A stretch of DNA of 64,000 nucleotides from Candidatus Bathyarchaeota archaeon (lineage in GTDB: Archaea > Thermoproteota > Bathyarchaeia > 40CM-2-53-6). The notes beneath the pieces are model-generated. The model was given only the letters and a program-made list of their open reading frames with translations. It was not told the origin of the DNA and made no database searches. Each line of letters begins with the position of its first letter. Positions within the stretch are counted from its first letter, which is position 1. Shown piece by piece: positions 3,224 through 14,592 of the stretch. Position numbers and translations under genes: made by a program. The stretch is from contig CAVSBL010000002.1 in assembly GCA_963726255.1 (NCBI GenBank), positions 512,001-576,000 of the forward strand, in the 5' to 3' direction.

Positions 3224-4282
3224 TCATTTTTGCGTAATTACGCTAGTTTGAGGTGAAGCCTGCGCATTACCGGTTGTCGTCGTATTAGCTTTTGGGGGAC
3301 GCGAGAAAAATTCCCGAATCAATCCTAGCGATATTCTAAGCGCATCATTTACGTTTCCCGCTACGTTTGCGCCTGCCGCGGTCGCATGCCCCCCACCCAT
3401 ACCATTCATTCTCGCGCCCAGCGGGTTTGCGAGGTTCGTTCCGAGATGCATGCCCGTTTCAGATACGAATTCTCGAGTTGCGCGGAAACTAACGGTCAAC
3501 TCATCGTTTCTCTTTCCCGCAACAATGGCCAAATGCGCCCCAAGCGCAACCAGGGCTCTAGCGGCTGAGGCATGATACGACCCCACTTCCGATAACGCAA
3601 CCACCCATTTTCCGGCGCGTTCTATTCTGACTCTCTGGGCTGATTTGAACCGTGCAATCCTTTCGGAATCATCCATCGTGGCACGTGTAATCTCTCTTGC
3701 TTCCTCAGGGTCGGCACCTGACCGAACCAAGGCATATGCGGATTCGAAAGTTCGGCGCGTGGCAATCGACAAATACCCTGTCTCCACAAGCAACCCGACC
3801 AGGAGCGCCTGGCAAACAGCTCGGCTCGGGACGAGATGTGACTGCTTGTACATCTCGAGAATCATTTCGCAAGTTGAAGTTGCGTGTTCGTCGCAAATGA
3901 CGAAAGTTGCCGTTTTTTGGTTTTCAGGATGGGGTGCGTGGTGGTCTATCATCACCAAAGGTTTGGCGGATTGGAGAACCGGCTCACGAAGTTCGCCCAA
4001 CTGCTGAAGCGTATTCGTGTCAATCGTAACGAGCAGGTCCATCCCCGACATTTCGGGGCGTTCCGTTACCTCTAGGGGGATGGTCTGCAGAATTTGTTTC
4101 GACAGTTTGCTTACGCCCGCGGGAGAAGCGAAGGTGACCTTAACCTTTCTGTTAACGCGCTTAACAAGGGCGACGAATGCGTACGCGGCGCAAACAGCGT
4201 CGGGGTCGGAGTTTTGATGCCCTATAACCAGAACCGTTTTTGCCTTTCGGAGCAGTTTGATTAGGCGGGGGTATCCTCGCAA
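3224..4282 (-). CDS. DHH/DHHA1 family phosphoesterase
   Basis: HQNSDPD, IDHH and GGGH motifs. Confidence 0.9.
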   Translation of the reverse strand: MRGYPRLIKLLRKAKTVLVIGHQNSDPDAVCAAYAFVALVKRVNRKVKVTFASPAGVSKLSKQILQTIPLEVTERPEMSGMDLLVTIDTNTLQQLGELREPVLQSAKPLVMIDHHAPHPENQKTATFVICDEHATSTCEMILEMYKQSHLVPSRAVCQALLVGLLVETGYLSIATRRTFESAYALVRSGADPEEAREITRATMDDSERIARFKSAQRVRIERAGKWVVALSEVGSYHASAARALVALGAHLAIVAGKRNDELTVSFRATREFVSETGMHLGTNLANPLGARMNGMGGGHATAAGANVAGNVNDALRISLGLIREFFSRPPKANTTTTGNAQASPQTSVITQK

Positions 4283-4563
4283 AGGTTAAGCTCCCTAGCT
4301 TTCGCTTCGGCCGCGGAGAACGCCGCTTCAGTGGCCTGGTCAACGAGAGGCTCCAAATCCTGGTCGCCACCTTCTAGTTCAATCGCCACATCAACAGACA
4401 CGAGAAGCGGCTTATCGCCCACAGCCTCAATCGTGACGTCCAGGTCGCTTACTTGCTTCAACGGGATCTTAGACAACAAATGCTTTCGCGCAGCGTCCTG
4501 AGCTGCCTCGCACATCGCTTCAACCTCCTCAGACGTAGGTATTCTCTTGAACTCAATACTCAT
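4261..4563 (-). CDS. DUF3194-like archaeal conserved protein
   Basis: About 100 aa, acidic, in the usual position between prefoldin beta and a DHH gene; start taken at MSIEFK. Confidence 0.7.
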   Translation of the reverse strand: MSIEFKRIPTSEEVEAMCEAAQDAARKHLLSKIPLKQVSDLDVTIEAVGDKPLLVSVDVAIELEGGDQDLEPLVDQATEAAFSAAEAKARELNLCEDTPA

Positions 4564-4605
4564 TGTGATTACACTCTGCACGGGCGTGCGACTTGCGTAG
4601 CGGCT

Positions 4606-4977
4606 CTACTGCTGAGGGGACGGCTTTGGTCCCTGAAGTCGTTCTTGAAGCTTTTCTTGGGCTTCCTTTAACCGCTCCCTAGTCCGATCCTCTTGTTTTC
4701 CGAGGACCGTGACCCGCGTCGTCAGAAGCTCCTTCCGTTCCTTAAGTTCAGTTAGCAGGTTCTGCCTGTTCGACTTGACAAGTATGCTGCCCACGCTTTT
4801 GTAGACAGGTGTTTCGTCAGTGGACTTTTCAAGTTCAGCTATGGCTTTGTCAGTTTCGTTCAATTCCATCTCCAGCTGCTGTTTTTGCGCTGCAACGGAC
4901 TGGAGTGTTTGTTGAAGTTGTTGGAGACGAACCAATTGCTCTTGGACTTGCGGTGGTAGCTCTACTTCTTCGCCCAA
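4606..4977 (-). CDS. pfdB: Prefoldin beta subunit
   Basis: LPPQVQ start, coiled coils flanking the VYKSVGSILVK hairpin. Confidence 0.95.
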   Translation of the reverse strand: MGEEVELPPQVQEQLVRLQQLQQTLQSVAAQKQQLEMELNETDKAIAELEKSTDETPVYKSVGSILVKSNRQNLLTELKERKELLTTRVTVLGKQEDRTRERLKEAQEKLQERLQGPKPSPQQ

Positions 4978-5114
4978 AACTTTTGCCTTCAGAACTCGCG
5001 CGAATTCGCGTAGCCATTAGACGGCAGCTAATTAAGCATTTCAGACTTTGTAACACTTTTCCTCAACTCTCCAAGCTAAATCCAAAGGCCACCCACCTAC
5101 CTTTTGATTTTGAG

Positions 5115-5435
5115 ATGATAACGAGCAGCGGCAGGCACATCCAGATAGTGGAGAGGCGCTTTTGTTCGAAGTGCAACGTGTTCACTGACCAAGTTTGCCA
5201 CAAGGTCAGGTACCAGGAGAACGAGGAGCAGTCCGGGACGTTGATCAAGAGGAGTAACTGGGTCTGTCCCACATGCCTCACTGATACCGAGGATGTCAAG
5301 ATTCAGCCGCTGCCATGCGACAAAGTGAGAATCATAAATAGAATACTCAAGATGCAAAACGATTACTCAATCCAATCCATGAGCATCTCATCACACCCGG
5401 AAAAACTAATCGTCGAAATAACCATCAAAGAATAG
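5115..5435 (+). CDS. Small zinc-ribbon hypothetical protein
   Basis: 106 aa from ATG 5115 with two CxxC pairs (CSKC, CPTC); 3' part of the 4809..5435 ORF. Confidence 0.65.
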   Translation: MITSSGRHIQIVERRFCSKCNVFTDQVCHKVRYQENEEQSGTLIKRSNWVCPTCLTDTEDVKIQPLPCDKVRIINRILKMQNDYSIQSMSISSHPEKLIVEITIKE

Positions 5436-5516
5436 CCGGAGTCGATGCAAATCCTTCTCCTTTAATCTCAGCAGCAAAGAATACCGGGCGGTGCCCTTCG
5501 CCTAGGAGATCGTCGA

Positions 5517-6626
5517 ATGCCTGACTTAGTCAAGAAGAATATTGAGATAGACGATGAGACAGGAGCCATTAGTGGATCTCTGACCTACGCGAACGCAAAG
5601 GTTCCTGTCCCAAACAAATTTGCAACCACAACAGAACTGAATGCAACCAAGTTGGTCGGGTTGAAGCAAGACTTCCCGACCGAAATCGTGATCGCGGGAA
5701 AACTGATTTACCCCGAGACTCTGAAGCGTATACTGAAAGAGGAGGAGTTCCTCAAAGAGTTCGCAAGGCGGCTTGCACGAGAAACGTCAAGTCACGAAGA
5801 CTCGTTGAGTATGCTCTTTCTCGTACTGAAGGGCGAAGCCGCCATCGTAGAATCAAGTGACTTACGAACGGTTCTCGACCTCCAATATTTCGCTGATATG
5901 GACGTAGTTACCGTTCAGCAGAGCCCAGGTGTTTCTCCGAAGGATTTCTTCACCCTGTACCGGTTCGCTGAACGGTGGCTGGATAACAGGGGCTTGGACA
6001 AGCCACTCATGCCAGTCTTGACGCCTACTGAAACGAAACAGGACTTCGATAAGATTCTAGGGCAGGTTTTGAAGAGGGGTACAAAGCTGGTCGGGTTCGA
6101 CATGAGAGGGGGCTTCTACTACCAAGCCCTCCGCTCTTTAGAGGAGGCGAAGAAGAAGGATCCGAGCCTCTGGGTTCATGTGTTCCAGGTTCCGCCGAAA
6201 ATTCGCTTCGCTCGAAGCATGCTTCGCTGCTCGGAGGGTATGATGCTTCCACTCTTCGGCGTAGACAGTTTCAACAGGTGGGTTGTGCCACCCCCGCCCG
6301 TTCCACTCACGAAGGACAAGATCAACAGGTTCGATTCCACGAACTGGGGAGTCTTCAAACGAAAAGAGTGGACCGAACAGTACGGCCCAACTCTGCACTG
6401 CACGTGCCCTATGTGCAGCAAACAGCGGCTGCCCACCTTCTACTTAGGGCAGGTGCTTACAGTTTTGGGGAGGAGTAAGGTCCACGACCATTACGCACAA
6501 CGCGAGCAGCTCTTACAATTGTCCTCCCACGTTAAGAGTGGAAACGTGAAGAGCTTCGTCTCTAGGAAGAAGTATCCAAAGGATTTTCTCGCGCAGGTAA
6601 CCAAGTCGGAATCAGAAGCGAGTTAG
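5517..6626 (+). CDS. tRNA-guanine transglycosylase (TGT)-fold protein, divergent
   Basis: TGT-like N-terminus (TGAISGSL..VP..F), LQ...DVV, VHVF, GVDSF and Zn site CTCPMC...H; lacks DSGG; AGGAGA SD-like sequence upstream. Confidence 0.65.
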   Translation: MPDLVKKNIEIDDETGAISGSLTYANAKVPVPNKFATTTELNATKLVGLKQDFPTEIVIAGKLIYPETLKRILKEEEFLKEFARRLARETSSHEDSLSMLFLVLKGEAAIVESSDLRTVLDLQYFADMDVVTVQQSPGVSPKDFFTLYRFAERWLDNRGLDKPLMPVLTPTETKQDFDKILGQVLKRGTKLVGFDMRGGFYYQALRSLEEAKKKDPSLWVHVFQVPPKIRFARSMLRCSEGMMLPLFGVDSFNRWVVPPPPVPLTKDKINRFDSTNWGVFKRKEWTEQYGPTLHCTCPMCSKQRLPTFYLGQVLTVLGRSKVHDHYAQREQLLQLSSHVKSGNVKSFVSRKKYPKDFLAQVTKSESEAS

Positions 6627-7252
6627 AGCTTCGCCTCAGCCATCTTAGTCATCAGGGCTCGGAGGTCAACTTCCGAATTCGTTCTCCAACCTAGCCCCAT
6701 CACACCCGCATCATCTTCGTCAAGGTATCCTGTTCGGAGAAATATGTCGACAAGCGTTGCGGCCTTCCAGCGGCCGAACTTATGGGCGAGCAGTTTCTCG
6801 AGGTCTTCGCGTGGGGCCTTGCCTTGCTTGGAGACCAAATATGCAATGGATGCGCTCAGGGCTGCTAAGTTGTCGACTCGCCAACCGATCATCTTTGCTT
6901 CCTTAAGGCCCAGGGTCCCTTTCAGAATGACCTGGTACCTAGCCTCTTCGAGTGGGGCGCCTTCAGGTGTAATCTCACCTGTCGGAGTCTCTTTCACTTT
7001 CTTAATTTCCAAATCCAGTTCGGATAATAGTTGGTTCAACTGTCCGAGGACCTGTTCGTAATTCTTCCCCAACTTCTCCTTCAGTTCCCAGTCCTTAGCC
7101 CCGGGCATTTTGCCGCGTCGGAATAGAAGTAGGTGAACTGCACGCTTCAGCTTGTCTGAGTAGAAACTCTTAGGTTCTGTCTGCGTCTGTGTCGTTCCAG
7201 TGGTTTCAGCAGATTTTGCTTCAGTGGCTTCCGTGGTTGCCAACTTTCTCAA
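6623..7252 (-). CDS. KITE (tandem winged-helix) subunit, MAGE/Nse3/ScpB-like
   Basis: Third gene of the SMC operon; two WH-like halves; FLRTGYL...LGWRTNSE resembles the MAGE/Nse1/Nse3 WH-B end. Confidence 0.6.
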   Translation of the reverse strand: MRKLATTEATEAKSAETTGTTQTQTEPKSFYSDKLKRAVHLLLFRRGKMPGAKDWELKEKLGKNYEQVLGQLNQLLSELDLEIKKVKETPTGEITPEGAPLEEARYQVILKGTLGLKEAKMIGWRVDNLAALSASIAYLVSKQGKAPREDLEKLLAHKFGRWKAATLVDIFLRTGYLDEDDAGVMGLGWRTNSEVDLRALMTKMAEAKL

Positions 7253-8039: not shown

Positions 8040-9992
8040 TTACTTCAGCTCGCTAACTACCGATGTGCCGGCTATGTTCTGGACTACGATCACGTGGCTG
8101 TTCTCGGTGACGTTGACCTGTCCTGGCGTTATGGCCACATACTGCCCTCCAGTCATGGCCCCGGAGCTTGACATGATCAACTGCGTGACGAGTTCACGGT
8201 TCTTAGGGTCCATGTGAACGTCAAACTCGTCGATCGCCCTGAATGGGGAGGTGATGTGTTGTTGGAGCCCTAGCAGGAAGGCCATCATTGCTATGCTGCG
8301 CTCTCCGCCACTCTGCGTGAAGGCGTCGAGGGCGGTGGGTTTGTTTCCCTTGAACCCAACCATTATTTCCACACCACATTTCTCAATATCTCTGGAGGAT
8401 ACGAGCCGAATAGAACCGGTAGCGCCAACGGTTCCTAGGATTTCGTTATAGCGGCCGGTCAATTGTTCTAGGAAGGATGAGAGCACGTCCCGCCATCGGG
8501 AGAGGCGCTTATCAAGCTCCGTTAGAACCTCCTGGCGGTTCTGCGCAACTTGGTCGGCCTTCTGCTTCAGCTCTTCGTAGACCTTCGCGTAGGACGAGTA
8601 CATCTTTTCGACATCTGCCGAGAGCGTTGACAATGGCCTCATCTGCTCTTCGACGGCACCGATTTCCAGCATTATCTCAAGGTTCTTTCTCGGCGATTCC
8701 ACGGCGGCGCCAGTCTTCTCCGCTGCGGCAACCATCGGGTCCAACTCTTCTTTGGCGAGACGAACTTGGGCTTGGAGGTCTGCTACTTCCTCTGTGAGGA
8801 GTTTCCTCTTGAACCCTGAAACCTCATACTCCACGTTCGTGTCGATGAGCCTTGTGAGCGCATCTTCGAGGCGGCCGCTGGTGTCAGCTAGTTTTTCGTT
8901 GAGCGAGGACATTTTCTCCTTCACTCTCGCCAGCTTGCCCTGCGACTCCTCAGCCGTCTCCCGCCAAGAGTTCTTCATCTTGTCGAGTGATTGTAAGGGA
9001 GGTTTAGGCGGCTGTGCCTCTTGCTCGGCCTCAACGGATTGGAAGTTCTGAAGGAGGTTTGTAGTCCATTCGATGTTCAGCTCATGTGTTGTGAGTTGCT
9101 TCACGAGGTCAACCCGTGAATCTTCGAGTTCCATTCGTCCAAGGTTTAATTCGTCAAACTTTGCCTGGCGTTTCTTCTTCGACTCCGCGAGCTCTTGGAT
9201 TTTGTTCTCAATCGATTGTAAAGCTCGCGTCTTCGATTCAATTCTGGCTTCGATGTGAGTTAATGCTTCCTTCTTCCTCTGGATCCGGCTCCACAAGAGT
9301 TCCCTCTTGAGGTTTTCCAGTTTCGTTTCCAGCTGCTGTTTCTGCAAGTAGCGCTCGTACTCACGCTTCCAATAATCATGAGTCTCCTTAGTGGATTCAA
9401 GAACCTGGGCGAGGGATTGCTCTTCGCTTGCGACACTTTCTAGGCGCTGTCTGGCGTCAATGACTTCTTCTCTATATGATTCGAAACCAACGGCTTCCTC
9501 AAGCATCTTCAACTTGTCTTGGGCGGTTACGGCGGCGAAGCGGCCGACCATGAACTGGTGCATGATGACTAGTATGTTGTCGGGGTTCAAGCCGAGGGAA
9601 AGAAAGGCGTCGGTGATTGCTGATTTAGGCGCTGGCTTGTTCTGGAGGAGATAGTAGTACGTGCCTGTGCTCTTGATTACTCGCGTGATGGTGACGAGGT
9701 CGGTGTGGAAGCGGGGGAATGGGCGTCTCTCGCCTGTATTATCGAGGATTAGTGTGACTCGGGCTTCGTCGTGTCCCCACTTTACAAGATCGCTCAACCG
9801 CTTGGACCGTTCAGTGTAAGCTTGGCCCAGAACTACGGAAACCGCAAGGAGGATGGAGGATTTTCCGGCTCCGTTCGGGCCACAAATGAGGTTCAGCCCG
9901 GGCTCTAACGGGACGTATGAGTTTTCGTAGGACATGAAATTTGTGAGCACTACGCCTTTTATCATCTGAGCCGAGCTACCGTTTGAAACCAT
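8040..9992 (-). CDS. Short SMC-family ATPase with Smc5/6-like head
   Basis: LTNFMSY, GPNGAGKS, QSGGERS, PFRAIDEFDVHMD; coiled coils between the head halves; only 650 aa. Confidence 0.85.
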   Translation of the reverse strand: MVSNGSSAQMIKGVVLTNFMSYENSYVPLEPGLNLICGPNGAGKSSILLAVSVVLGQAYTERSKRLSDLVKWGHDEARVTLILDNTGERRPFPRFHTDLVTITRVIKSTGTYYYLLQNKPAPKSAITDAFLSLGLNPDNILVIMHQFMVGRFAAVTAQDKLKMLEEAVGFESYREEVIDARQRLESVASEEQSLAQVLESTKETHDYWKREYERYLQKQQLETKLENLKRELLWSRIQRKKEALTHIEARIESKTRALQSIENKIQELAESKKKRQAKFDELNLGRMELEDSRVDLVKQLTTHELNIEWTTNLLQNFQSVEAEQEAQPPKPPLQSLDKMKNSWRETAEESQGKLARVKEKMSSLNEKLADTSGRLEDALTRLIDTNVEYEVSGFKRKLLTEEVADLQAQVRLAKEELDPMVAAAEKTGAAVESPRKNLEIMLEIGAVEEQMRPLSTLSADVEKMYSSYAKVYEELKQKADQVAQNRQEVLTELDKRLSRWRDVLSSFLEQLTGRYNEILGTVGATGSIRLVSSRDIEKCGVEIMVGFKGNKPTALDAFTQSGGERSIAMMAFLLGLQQHITSPFRAIDEFDVHMDPKNRELVTQLIMSSSGAMTGGQYVAITPGQVNVTENSHVIVVQNIAGTSVVSELK

Positions 9993-11435: not shown

Positions 11436-14400
11436 CTATTGCTTCGCCGTGCTTTTTCCGCCTAATCTTGCTTTCTCGAATAGGCCGAACTCATACGTTT
11501 CTGACCCAATCTGCCACGCCTTAGTGTAGTAGGGAATCTTTGTTTGTTCTCTTTTCGTAGTAATTGTCAGTTGTTTTGCCCGAACTTCCCCGGCGATGTA
11601 ACTTCGCTTACCTTTGAGTAGATTCGCGGCGTTTGCTGACGGTGCGAGGATGTAGGCGTTCACGTACGAGTCCACCTTGAGGTCCATTTCCTTTCGCATT
11701 TGCTGCATGCGCCTTACAGCGTCTCGAGCTAAGCCTTCGGCCAGTTCACTCTTCGTAAGTTTCAGGTCAACGTATACTGAGCCGTCAGCGAATTCGGCTT
11801 TAGCGAAACGTGCGGGTTCTTCGTATTTCGAACTTGCAGCCCTGTCGGTTGAAGTCAGGGTTCTTGTGTTTGCTTGATCAAGAACGAGGGTTGAGTAGGT
11901 CTTCAGGGCCTTTCGCACACGTTTGGAGTCGGTTGCCACCACTATGCGTGGGACAGGTTGCCTTTGTTTCATCGCCTTTTGCATACGGGCTACGGCGACC
12001 GTAGAAATCACATCTTTGGCTGCATTCATCTCTTCCTCAAGGGAGTCGCTGATCCACTTCTCGTCGAATTGTGGCCAGTCAAGCAGGTGTACGGTCTGGG
12101 GGAGTTTCGGTTCAGCGTTCCTGAACATGTGTTGGTAGATTGATTCAGTTAGGAAAGGCGTTATTGGGGTTAGCATTATGAGAGCAGCTTTAAGGGCCGT
12201 ATAGAGGGTTGTGTATGCTGCCAGCTTGTCTCGTGTTTGTTTCTCAACCCATGTTCGGCGCCTGATGAACCTGACGTATGTGTGGCTTAGGTCCTCCACT
12301 AGGAAGGTTTTGAGTTTTCGAACCGCTTCATGGATCTTGTATTCTTCCATTAACGTGGTTGCTTCTTTGATTGTCCGGTGCATTCGGCTTAGGAGCCATC
12401 GGTCCTCAGGGCGCAGGCTGCGCGTGAGTTGCTTCAAAGACATTTTTGGTGAGAACTTGTCTAGGCACATGTATGTGCTCGCGAAGACATAGGTGTTCCA
12501 GAATGTGCTCAAGTCACCGCTGTATTGTTTGACAGCGTCCCATGAGAATCGGAGGTCTTCCCACAACGTGGTCTGGAGAACATAGTAGCGGAATGAGTCT
12601 CGGCCGAATTTCTCTGTAACCTCATTGGCCGTAACGTAGTTGCCTCCTGACTTATGCATTTCACGCCCTTCGGAATCAAGTGCGAAGCCGTGCATCAGGA
12701 CAGTCTTGTATGGTACCTTGCCCATCGTCACCATTCCGCTTTTCAGAAGGGCAAAGAACCACAGCGTTACCTGGTCGCGTCCCTCTACGATGAAATCGGC
12801 AGGCCACCAGTATTTGGTCTCAGAACTATTCTTCGGGTATCCCAAGCATGCCAGTGATGCGCCACCCGAGTCGAACCAAACGTCCATAACGTCCGGCACG
12901 CGGGTCATGTCGGCTCCGCAGTCGCATCTGAACTTTACTTTGTCGATCCAAGGCATGTGCAGGGTTGGCAGGTCCACCGGTGAGGTCGCATTCTCAAGGA
13001 GTTCTTGCTTTGACCCGATGATCTTCCGTTTTCCACAGGACCCACATGTCCACACTGGAAGCGGGGTGCCCCAGAACCTCTGGCGTGAGATCACCCAGTC
13101 TCTCAATGCCCCAAGCCAATTCTTGAACTGGACGGCTCCAGCCCACTCAGGGATCCATAGTGTAGAGTCGACTTCTTTGATGAAGGCATCTTTCTTCTGT
13201 GCGATTCGGATGAGCCATTGGTCGGTCGCGCGGATTATGAGTGGCGTTTTGCAGCGCCAACAAGCGGGGCTTCGGTGTTCTATTTCTTCCCGTGAAGAAG
13301 CATTCCAAGCGATTTCAGATCATCAATTACCTCAGGGTTTGCATCTCTAACGGGTTTCCCTGAGTACTTCCCAGCTTCAGGAGTTAACTTTCCTTGGTCG
13401 TCGACCAGCATTAGGACGGGTAAGCCGTAGCGTACGCCCACTTCGTAATCTTGCTCTCCATGACCTGGTGCGGAGTGAACGCATCCAGTCCCTTCCCCAA
13501 GGACCACGTACTCCTTGCTTAGAACAACTCGGTGAGCATTTTTCAAGTTGCGTTGAGCGGGAACCAAGCTTTCCAGAGGGGAGCGGTAAACCAAACCGTC
13601 AAGTTTCGTTCCAGGGAAACTTTCTAGAAGCTGCATGGTTTGGCCTGAGGCCTTTGCGACCTCTTCTATTCGTTCCTTTGCGAGTATGAACGTCTCCTGT
13701 CCCGATCTAACTCTTGCGTACTCAAAATCTGGGTTCACCATGACGGCCACGTTTGATGGTAGCGTCCAAGGCGTTGTCGTCCAGATCAGTACGAACTCGT
13801 CTTGCTTGCTTTCCACGGGGAACTTCACGTAGATCGATGGGTCTCGAACCATCTTGTACTCTAGGGCAACCTCGTAATCCGAGAGGACCGTTTCATCCTG
13901 AGGGCACCAATGTACGACTCTCTGGCCGTGCTCAAGGAGTCCCTTCGACGCCGCTTGCTTGAAACCCCACCAGCCGCTCTCAACATAGGAATCCAGATGC
14001 GTCATGTAGGGCCGGTCCCAGTCCATCCAGATGCCCAGATCCTGGAAAGCCCTTGTCAGTGAAGCCGAGTTCGTTTCTGAGAATCGTTTGCATTCCGTGA
14101 TGAACCGTTCGAGTCCGAAGCTTTCTATTTCCTTCTTAGTTTTGACGCCAAACTTCTGCTCTATCGCGAGCTCAACGGGCAGGCCATGGCAGTCATAGCC
14201 CGGTTGATCCCTGACATTGAACCCGCACGAACGTTTGTAGCGAATTACAGTGTCCTTCAGAACCTTGCCCCAAGAGGTTCCTATGTGGGGTTGGTCCGCA
14301 CTAGGGAAAGGAGGGCCATCTAGGAAGTAGAATTTTGGATTTTTGGATTTTGCCTTCTTTACTGCTTCGTATGTTTGGTTTTCTTCCCAGAGAGTCTTTA

Positions 14401-14461
14401 CTTCGCTTTCAACTACTTTGGGGTCGTATTGTTTCGGCAGTTCGCCAACGTGCTTGCTCAT
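11436..14461 (-). CDS. ileS: Isoleucyl-tRNA synthetase (1-nt frameshift at about 13290, likely assembly error)
   Basis: DGPP, HIGT, DCHGLP, WTTTPWT, DWVISRQR, EMHKS; one extra G joins the two ORFs as LLHGEEIEHRSPACWRCKTP. Confidence 0.95.
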
Positions 14462-14477
14462 TACCGTAACCTCTGCT

Positions 14478-14592
14478 TGTCGGGTCCTACGAGAATTCCT
14501 GGATGATTTCGCCGCATTGATTGATAACAATGCCAGTAAGTATGCTTCAGAAGCTTACTGTTCGATTTCTCGGTCACCTTTCACCGGCGACA
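14478..14592. promoter_or_regulatory. Nested stem-loop structure in the ileS/kae1 divergent intergenic region
   Basis: Four nested or adjacent helices: TGTCG/CGACA, CGAGAA/TTCTCG, GCATTG/CAATGC, CAGTAAG/CTTACTG. Confidence 0.4.

Follow-up and report, generated by a model that had tools for sequence, protein, structure and literature searches.

Enzymes with the tRNA-guanine transglycosylase (TGT) fold were long held to act on tRNA only, and one protein with this fold, QTRT2, is a non-catalytic subunit of the eukaryotic TGT that forms a heterodimer with a catalytic TGT paralogue. DpdA is reported to be a TGT-fold enzyme that works on DNA and needs a partner ATPase, DpdB; three aspartates, serving as general acid/base, base reader and nucleophile, are given there as invariant in TGTs and DpdA, and mutation of either catalytic Asp abolishes base exchange (PMC10164549). 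Cap10, from the type IV cyclic-oligonucleotide-based antiphage signalling system (CBASS), is presented in its preprint as a remodelled TGT-family protein that reads 7-deazaguanine via D73, S74 and D122, uses a D248/H226 pair and binds a modified protein N-terminus (10.1101/2025.04.06.647259). In DpdA (DNA) and Cap10 (protein), the TGT fold has been re-used in conflict systems. For SMC proteins (structural maintenance of chromosomes), van Hooff et al. report two complete operons in TACK and Asgard archaea, one condensin/cohesin-related and one SMC5/6-related, the latter with an Nse4-like kleisin and an Nse1/3-like kite unlike ScpB in sequence (10.1101/2024.01.07.573240). Here we describe a gene for a TGT-fold protein (P0001) that lies beside SMC5/6-like genes in a Bathyarchaeia genome (Table 1). 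The window is the whole stretch of DNA that was analysed, 64,000 nucleotides at C2:512001-576000, and all C2 coordinates refer to the same genome.

We propose, at a probability of roughly 40%, that this protein is a base-flipping enzyme that acts on nucleic acid, probably DNA, with a new base specificity, and that it works with the SMC5/6-related complex encoded next to it. Its family, small and previously unnamed, is an archaeal branch of the TGT superfamily in which the Zn site is intact.

The TGT homology of the window protein is visible at the profile level only; the single sequence gives no Pfam or NCBIfam match. PF01702 (TGT) is absent even at E<=10, so that its Pfam gathering threshold is not reached, and a sequence search of the PDB with the single protein returned noise matches only. 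Within the family, 14 of 45 members match PF01702 weakly (best E 7.1e-6), and the profile of these 45 members finds arcTGT (1iq8, E 1.4e-8) and QTRT1 (E 2.8e-5) in the PDB, through matches that run across the N-terminal hairpin and the Zn region. An hhalign comparison of the 63-member alignment with 17 arcTGTs drawn from Thermoproteota genomes gave a probability of 98.8% and an E of 4.5e-17 over 304-315 columns.

Structure prediction agrees with the profiles. AlphaFold2 run on the diverse alignment of 63 sequences (A3) reached a mean predicted local distance difference test (pLDDT) score of 94.3 and a predicted template-modelling (pTM) score of 0.93, and this model was used; the one built on a shallow alignment of 29 close sequences (A1) had a pLDDT of 53 and was discarded. 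The top 50 PDB matches of the model in Foldseek are all Zymomonas mobilis TGT, with E ~3e-12 and TM ~0.61. A second fold search (VIA), independent of Foldseek, places arcTGT 1iq8_A first (Z 25.2, 309 residues, root-mean-square deviation 3.4 Å), followed by bacterial TGT 3unt (Z 24.6) and QTRT2 6fv5 (Z 23.3), with 308-318 residues covered for the three; DpdA 7ui4 scores 16.3, generic TIM barrels reach at most 14.4 and Cap10 9ntn_B stands at 13.7. We are therefore nearly certain that the window protein adopts a TGT-superfamily fold. The model consists of an N-terminal β-sheet, a (β/α)8 barrel, a Zn subdomain and C-terminal helices; the barrel is closed by the N-terminal antiparallel sheet, the Zn subdomain is inserted C-terminally, and no further C-terminal domain follows. 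Residues 2-364 are consumed by the equivalent of the catalytic and Zn part of arcTGT (1iq8 residues 6-350), which leaves no room for a PUA domain, and no PUA match was found with Pfam in the 369-residue protein; the four PUA matches of the genome are all located away from the gene. As modelled, the protein is a TGT catalytic barrel with its Zn subdomain and nothing else.

A preliminary description of this stretch had recognised a TGT-like order of motifs, an intact Zn site (CTCPMC...H), no DSGG motif and no PUA domain, and these points are all borne out: the profile and fold matches above support the first, the Zn ligands are conserved in 59-63 of 63 members, and the translation holds neither DSGG nor DSG. 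The TGT-like TIM barrel that it expected is also what the model shows. It had named Z. mobilis TGT, arcTGT and DpdA together as structural references; the fold indeed lies near arcTGT and TGT, as well as QTRT2 (Z 23-25), whereas DpdA proved the weaker match.

With arcTGT (Pyrococcus horikoshii, 1IQ8) the window protein shares the N-terminal β-hairpin ending in 'TP', the xLQ helix, the His on strand 7, the GxD on strand 8, the CxCxxC...H motif and the helix that follows it. It differs from arcTGT in lacking both the Asp of DSG(G/A) and the Asp after strand 4 (Q135), in lacking the C-terminal domains including PUA (369 residues, against 528 for the genome's own arcTGT, which carries DUF5591), and in adding a hairpin (228-239), a PPPP loop and an invariant E40. 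Bacterial TGT of Z. mobilis and eukaryotic QTRT1 have the same barrel and Zn subdomain in ~370-390 residues with no extra domains; identity to them is 10-13%, the aspartates that read guanine or preQ1 are replaced in the window protein, and the genomic partner of its gene is an SMC-like operon, not queuosine genes.

The open reading frame (ORF) is not a chance one, because it has 168 relatives, occurs in 66 of 105 species genomes of the order and shows a ratio of non-synonymous to synonymous substitutions (dN/dS) of 0.028. The last value, with a dS of 0.80, was obtained against a 95%-identical orthologue, and the gene is under strong purifying selection. The 168 relatives come from a word-index search at E<=1e-3, with identities of 53-95% among the 120 matches listed, and the nearest public relatives are metagenome-assembled genomes of Bathyarchaeia; a second word-index search, with the profile A2, gave close relatives only among the matches listed. 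The ATG start has GGAG ~10 nt upstream, orthologues share the same start position (N-termini MPDL or MPEL), and the TAG stop overlaps the stop of the convergent ORF downstream. A pattern query of viral contigs returned 73 stretches with zero relatives of the protein among them, so that with this query there is no sign of a viral origin. One wetland metatranscriptome run contained five short contigs, 95-99% alike, that cover parts of positions 4900-7104, two of them within the gene; such contigs from an RNA library do not demonstrate transcription.

In an exhaustive HMMER scan of 1.84 billion representatives, 70 clusters (at 50% identity) reached E<=1e-3. When the 63 sequences in A3 are grouped by BLAST at >=33% identity, 27 of them fall into the close clade of the window protein; the 36 distant members are about 350-470 residues long and only 15-25% identical to it. 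Across the 63 aligned members, the acid at position 40 (E or D) and H323 are present in all, Q123 in 62, C295 and C297 in 61 each, D250 and C300 in 59 and H221 in 57. The Zn ligands stand in the context LHC295TC297PMC300...H323DH, which has the CxCxxC...H pattern of TGTs.

To place these residues in the TGT active site, we compared the order of secondary-structure elements in the model with the sequence of the genome's own arcTGT. The positions concerned are those of the general acid/base (D102 in Z. mobilis TGT, D95 in DpdA), the base reader (D156, D130 and, in Cap10, D122) and the nucleophile (D280, D256 and, in Cap10, D248). The end of strand 3 (97-104) reads K105-G-E, in the place of TDSGA in arcTGT; helix 113-125 (LLDLQ) corresponds to IVRFQ of arcTGT; at the end of strand 4 (130-134) stands QQS, opposite LDVP of arcTGT. 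Strand 6 (191-195), helix 202-214 and then DPSLWVHVFQVP correspond to PPDRPLHLFGAG of arcTGT. An extra hairpin (228-239) and helix 240-247 precede G-V-D250-S-F, the counterpart of G-C-D-I-F, and the order β6-α6-β7-α7-β8 is the same in both proteins. A further hairpin (271-273/278-280) and helix 282-289 lead into CxC, as a hairpin after strand 8 presumably does in TGTs as well.

On this mapping, the nucleophile Asp and its His partner (D250 and H221) appear to be kept, whereas the two base-reading aspartates appear to have given way to hydrogen-bond donors, Lys or Arg in one case and Gln in the other. No DSG, and hence no Asp of the D102/D95 type, occurs anywhere in the protein sequence, and the base-recognising Asp after strand 4 (D156 type) is replaced by Q135 in the window protein. 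Within the close clade, positions 105-107 read K/R-G-E/D, position 105 being K in 19 and R in six of the 27 members and position 106 G in 24; among the 36 distant members, no acid is conserved at these sites. Q stands at position 135 in 22 of the 27 close members, D or E in 29 of the 36 distant ones. H221 lies on strand 7 and likely hydrogen-bonds D250, by analogy with H226 and D248 of Cap10.

The acid E40 is specific to the family: in the model it stands at the start of the helix after strand 1, and the arcTGT sequence has no counterpart. We take the region that holds it to border the ribose pockets in bacterial TGT. E40 may thus be a candidate replacement acid/base or a substrate contact, and a role for it in the active site, together with a changed base specificity, would be in keeping with the model.

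The choice of D250 as the nucleophile equivalent is not the only one that the alignments offer. When residues 186-262 are aligned alone, hhalign sets GVDSF on GCDIF in a weak match (E 0.004). Several observations weigh against this register and, with it, against our proposal. The full-length hhalign sets GCDIFDS of arcTGT on KINRFDS (268-274), which would put N270 at the nucleophile position, and an alignment of segment 240-300, which includes the Zn motif, gives the same N270 register at E 8e-7. In that register, none of the three TGT aspartates would be present. Moreover, our residue equivalences are built on the order of strands and not on a superposition. A hidden Markov model of the 17 arcTGTs, used with HMMER, could be aligned with family members over the N-terminal hairpin and the Zn region only, and did not fix the register of the barrel. 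We nevertheless prefer D250, because the N270 register sets a predicted strand (219-225) against a helix of arcTGT, because it puts the best-conserved acid of the family inside an 'insertion', and because the spacing from the His to the nucleophile is 29 residues for D250 against 49 for N270. The spacing is 21 residues in the genome's arcTGT and 22 in Cap10, by the Cap10 preprint (10.1101/2025.04.06.647259). That D250 is the nucleophile equivalent is, on the model, probable.

The preliminary description had read the missing DSGG motif, together with GVDSFN in place of the usual G.D.FD, as a sign that the catalytic aspartates were altered. In G.D.FD, its observation stands for the second D, which is changed to N or S; the first, D250, which probably corresponds to the nucleophile, is kept, and the claim that both catalytic aspartates are altered is not supported in that form. 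Since D250 and H221 are conserved among members only 15-25% identical, retained chemistry is favoured over a dead paralogue. The same description had considered a reader of 7-deazaguanine. This is unlikely, because the residues that contact the guanine or 7-deazaguanine edge in TGT, DpdA and Cap10, namely the DS of DSGG and the D156/D130/D122-type Asp, are those that have been replaced. We judge it quite probable that the window protein differs from a canonical exchanger of guanine and preQ0.

A pseudoenzyme, too, would show the loss of two 'invariant' aspartates, and this counts against an active enzyme. The protein could be a non-catalytic TGT-fold protein of the QTRT2 type that binds nucleic acid or a partner, perhaps as an adaptor of the SMC complex, and we hold this to be rather unlikely. 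It shares with QTRT2 (6FV5) the fold, the Zn site and altered active-site residues, and the fold of QTRT2 is as close to it as those of the active enzymes. With a pI of 9.2 the protein is basic, two of the three aspartates reported as required in TGTs and DpdA are absent (PMC10164549), and in the full-length hhalign register the third is absent too. Against a pseudoenzyme stands the conservation of D250, H221 and the acid at position 40 across such divergent members, which is an active-site pattern, and the distant members mostly keep an acid of the D156 type. Unlike QTRT2, the family keeps the Asp at the nucleophile position and its His, and no linked catalytic paralogue was found in the genome, whose only canonical TGT (P0207, C2:1280448-1281419) lies ~760 kb away and unlinked. 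Should the protein turn out to be inactive, prokaryotes would have their own pseudoenzyme of the QTRT2 type, with a new partner.

A protein-directed enzyme of the Cap10 kind, which would hold or transfer a nucleobase on a subunit of the SMC complex or on the product of the Cys-rich ORF upstream, seems to us very improbable. Cap10 does provide a precedent, as its TGT fold was remodelled for a protein substrate and an Asp/His pair is used there, by the account of the preprint; its D73, S74 and D122, which keep the 7-deazaguanine pocket, are missing in the window protein (10.1101/2025.04.06.647259). Cap10 is among the fold matches of our model, with a Z no better than that of generic TIM barrels. 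Type IV CBASS has a QueC-like Cap9 and a CD-NTase, neither of which is near the window gene; QueC of this genome is at C2:1695017, ~1.18 Mb away. No dpd-like genes (including a ParB-like DpdB) or CBASS genes were found among the window neighbours, and the TGT-fold protein has no PADLOC match.

The strongest clue to function is the conserved linkage to the SMC5/6-like operon, which emerged from the neighbourhoods of homologues and had been missed in the preliminary description. The operon consists of an unusually short SMC paralogue, with heads and a short coiled coil, an Nse4-type kleisin and a third gene for a 209-residue protein. The kleisin, whose Pfam score falls just under the cut-off, also matches EID3 in the PDB (E 1.4e-3), which we take to be a human NSE4 paralogue. 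No significant similarity was seen between the kleisin and the genome's ScpA. The 209-residue protein matched nothing in Pfam, NCBIfam, PADLOC or the PDB, and its profile showed no similarity to that of the genome's ScpB; its position would put it in the kite role. The short SMC scores 202 bits against TIGR02169, far under the cut-off. A canonical 1196-residue SMC with ScpA and ScpB is found elsewhere in the genome (C2:1120272-1124974), ~600 kb away. The three genes fit the SMC5/6-related second operon of van Hooff et al., which likewise combines a second SMC, an Nse4-type kleisin and a third gene (10.1101/2024.01.07.573240).

SMC-like genes adjoin the TGT-fold gene in 33 of 37 related loci from species genomes. 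Of the four others, two (L028, L037) have contigs that end at the gene and two (L029, L030) have >7 kb of other genes there. A count over the order's 105 species genomes gives 66 with the TGT-fold gene, 74 with the kleisin and 60 with both; the two genes are <=5 kb apart in 52 of the 60, 63 kb apart in one and on different contigs in seven. The six genomes that have the TGT-fold gene and no kleisin match are 63-90% complete. Three arrangements occur. The genes are convergent in 49 genomes, as in the window. In three (L034, L035, L080) they are co-directional, with overlapping or nearly abutting ORFs in the order TGT-fold gene, a 533-residue gene (c19), SMC, kleisin and third gene. In L078, from a genome of another class (G004) and at 32% identity, the TGT-fold gene is divergent from the SMC gene, 73 bp apart. 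Adjacency, as would be expected of an accessory subunit of an SMC5/6-related complex, is kept across all three, and the gene is strongly, if not universally, adjacent to the operon. For the c19 protein of the co-directional loci, Pfam, NCBIfam, PADLOC and the PDB returned no match, and a search of the window's genome did not find it.

Other facts of the distribution weaken the case for a joint function. A single family supplies 50 of the 66 genomes with the TGT-fold gene, and synteny extends over the entire region CbiQ...prefoldin...TFB; its inheritance could account for much of the linkage. Most genomes have the convergent arrangement, in which the genes are not co-transcribed. In one genus (L029, L030, G476, G481) the TGT-fold gene and the SMC-like genes are unlinked. 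The kleisin occurs without the TGT-fold gene in 14 genomes, among them all kleisin-positive genomes of families f63 (three), f2 (two) and f4 (two); since the SMC-like trio can do without it in these genomes, the TGT-fold protein is not a core subunit. No SMC neighbour was found in nine distant loci (L069-L077) or in the seven metagenome loci analysed (nine fetched). A complex predicted for the kleisin, the 209-residue protein and the TGT-fold protein, from 18-row alignments with the SMC left out, scored 0.00 against a mark of 0.32 and is uninformative either way. We put the odds of a functional tie between the TGT-fold protein and the SMC-like complex at about even.

If the SMC-like neighbours were inherited synteny only, the protein could be an enzyme that modifies tRNA or rRNA with a new base or position specificity. 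Its closest folds are those of the tRNA enzymes arcTGT and TGT rather than DpdA, translation genes are found in the region (Gar1 and IleRS, with SerRS upstream in L035), and adjacency is mostly within one family and convergent. Nevertheless, we consider an RNA enzyme unlikely. Adjacency persists through the three rearrangements, up to the divergent pair in another class, while the other flanks change, and the protein lacks the C-terminal tRNA-binding domains of arcTGT. Its gene is absent from 39 of the 105 genomes of the order, a patchy distribution unusual for a core tRNA modification, and its distant relatives lie beside restriction-modification (R-M), methyltransferase and HD genes.

According to the base-flipping proposal, the protein would flip a nucleotide into its barrel, where two hydrogen-bond acceptors of the TGT pocket would have become donors, Lys/Arg-Gly-Glu at the DSGG position and Gln at the D156-type position, and the target would be a base other than guanine or preQ0. 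Chemistry at the glycosidic bond, either base excision or base exchange, could proceed via a covalent intermediate between Asp and C1'. That the substrate is DNA is a tentative element of the proposal. The neighbouring SMC5/6-related complex would handle this DNA, in a part like that of the ATPase DpdB, which DpdA requires; the partner would be an SMC/kleisin complex, not DpdB. The basic pI and the DNA-conflict-like surroundings of distant family members speak for the proposal. DpdA also differs in that it keeps all three aspartates (PMC10164549), and it is the weaker fold match. The combination of an SMC module with a separate effector is known from Wadjet (JetABCD) and Lamassu (PMC10586767). 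With its catalytic pair apparently kept and its guanine/7-deazaguanine pocket rebuilt, the family would be a further branch of the fold and may handle a different base or lesion. To our knowledge, the effectors linked to SMC proteins are nucleases and the like, not TGT-fold proteins. No description of a TGT-like protein beside SMC genes was found in the literature, and the word 'transglycosylase' has no occurrence in the main text of the van Hooff preprint, the supplements lying outside that search (10.1101/2024.01.07.573240). The placement beside an SMC5/6-related operon makes the protein a testable candidate for an accessory activity of that archaeal complex.

A more specific version, which we regard as quite unlikely in its entirety, makes the TGT-fold protein the effector of a module for SMC-based DNA surveillance. 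The SMC5/6-related complex would load on or scan foreign, damaged or replicating DNA and present it to an enzyme that removes or swaps a non-guanine base via a covalent Asp250-C1' intermediate. The DNA would thereby be marked or disabled, and the part played by the enzyme would be comparable to that of JetD in Wadjet or of DpdA with DpdB. The distant relatives, with a PDC-M19A/DarG-C-like protein near R-M genes, would then be stand-alone toxin or defence versions. The eukaryotic descendant of the SMC5/6-related complex functions in repair and in the restriction of extrachromosomal DNA. If the surveillance model were true, base-exchange enzymes and SMC complexes would be linked for the first time, and there would be a hint of what Smc5/6 did ancestrally.

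The distant members were sought in 401 Thermoproteota genomes, where most of the 274 matches are to the Zn region of canonical arcTGT only. Among the matches listed, four genomes have full-length matches of the close clade and 12 further rows span >=200 profile positions, many of them in single-contig genomes of family f16. An Atlas feature search pointed to unnamed archaeal clusters, commonest in Methanobacteriota (score 0.97). In nine of 16 distant loci a gene for a protein of 150-260 residues (c2) is found upstream in the same orientation, either next to the TGT-fold gene or separated from it by one small gene. Each of the eight c2 homologues scanned has at least one PADLOC match: seven match PDC-M19A (E 3.9e-5 to 3.1e-13) and six the C-terminal half of DarG. 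Some also match the C-terminal add-on of a type I specificity model, and weak winged-helix or Panacea matches were seen. A D12 DNA methyltransferase gene follows directly downstream in L089, L070 has one for a type IIG R-M enzyme nearby, and HD-domain proteins are also encoded in the neighbourhood. This context looks like that of defence or toxin-antitoxin genes, and the cassette could be an undescribed module of either kind. It often includes a Zn-ribbon protein beside c2 (L069-L077, L089-L097). We also considered two relationships to the window's genes and rejected both at an hhalign probability of <=1.2%: one of c2 with the 209-residue protein or the kleisin, the other of the upstream Cys-rich ORF with the Zn-ribbon genes c9/c4 of the distant loci.

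Table 1. Positions of the TGT-fold gene, its motifs and neighbouring genes, in window coordinates unless a locus is named
Feature	Position	Strand	Basis
TGT-fold protein gene (P0001, 369 aa)	5517..6626	+	ORF and translation
E40, family-specific acid just after barrel strand 1	5634..5636	+	E or D in 63/63
K105-G106-E107, end of barrel strand 3, at the DSGG (general acid/base Asp) position of TGTs	5829..5837	+	strand order
Q134-Q135, end of strand 4, at the base-recognising Asp position of TGT/DpdA	5916..5921	+	hhalign sets VTVQQS on VILDVP of arcTGT
H221 on strand 7	6177..6179	+	H in 57/63; genome's arcTGT has LHLFGAG at the same strand
G248-V-D250-S-F-N253, strand 8	6258..6275	+	D in 59/63; strand order matches arcTGT
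Zn site C295-x-C297-x-x-C300...H323	6399..6485	+	aligned to the arcTGT/QTRT1 Zn motif
Small Cys-rich ORF (CxxC...CxxC), ~106 aa from the ATG at 5115	5115..5435	+	81 nt before the TGT-fold gene, after prefoldin
Third gene of the SMC-like operon, 209 aa (kite position)	6623..7252	-	ORF; convergent with the TGT-fold gene
Nse4-type kleisin, 262 aa	7249..8037	-	Pfam Nse4_C, E 1.8e-5, 25.4 bits (cut-off 26)
Short SMC paralogue, 650 aa, heads and short coiled coil	8040..9992	-	Pfam SMC_N, E 4.3e-33
c19, 492-533 aa, between the TGT-fold gene and the SMC gene	L035:9073-10674; also L034, L080	+	

The surroundings in the window are archaeal, with TFB, Gar1, prefoldin beta, DUF3194, a DHH phosphoesterase and a Hef-type ERCC4 nuclease. 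Among them, the run of DHH/DHHA1 phosphoesterase, DUF3194 and prefoldin beta genes upstream of the TGT-fold gene (3224-4977, minus strand) looks ordinary. The small Cys-rich ORF between prefoldin and the TGT-fold gene gave no family match; in 17 of the 37 related loci tblastn gives a match at the corresponding position, with 31-95% identity, and the ORF may or may not belong to the same unit as the TGT-fold gene. When set against models of defence systems, the short SMC scores an E of 2.1e-30 with mad3 and 9e-15 with LmuB.

The canonical TGT gene of the genome (C2:1279872-1281419; loci L001 and L098) encodes 528 residues with the motifs TDSGA, LDVP, GCDIFDS and CNCPAC, and it carries DUF5591 in the same frame instead of PUA. 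We take DUF5591 to be an archaeosine-synthase-type domain; it was matched in three of 14 control genomes, those of M. jannaschii, H. volcanii and M. acetivorans. Farther along the window, an IleRS-like gene is present as two ORFs on the minus strand, a 556-residue C-terminal part (11436-13106) and a 416-residue N-terminal part (13280-14530), separated by a gap of ~170 nt. Related genomes, for example L004, L008, L010 and L013, have both pieces and a gap of similar size. This points away from an assembly error and towards a conserved split, an intervening element or recoding.

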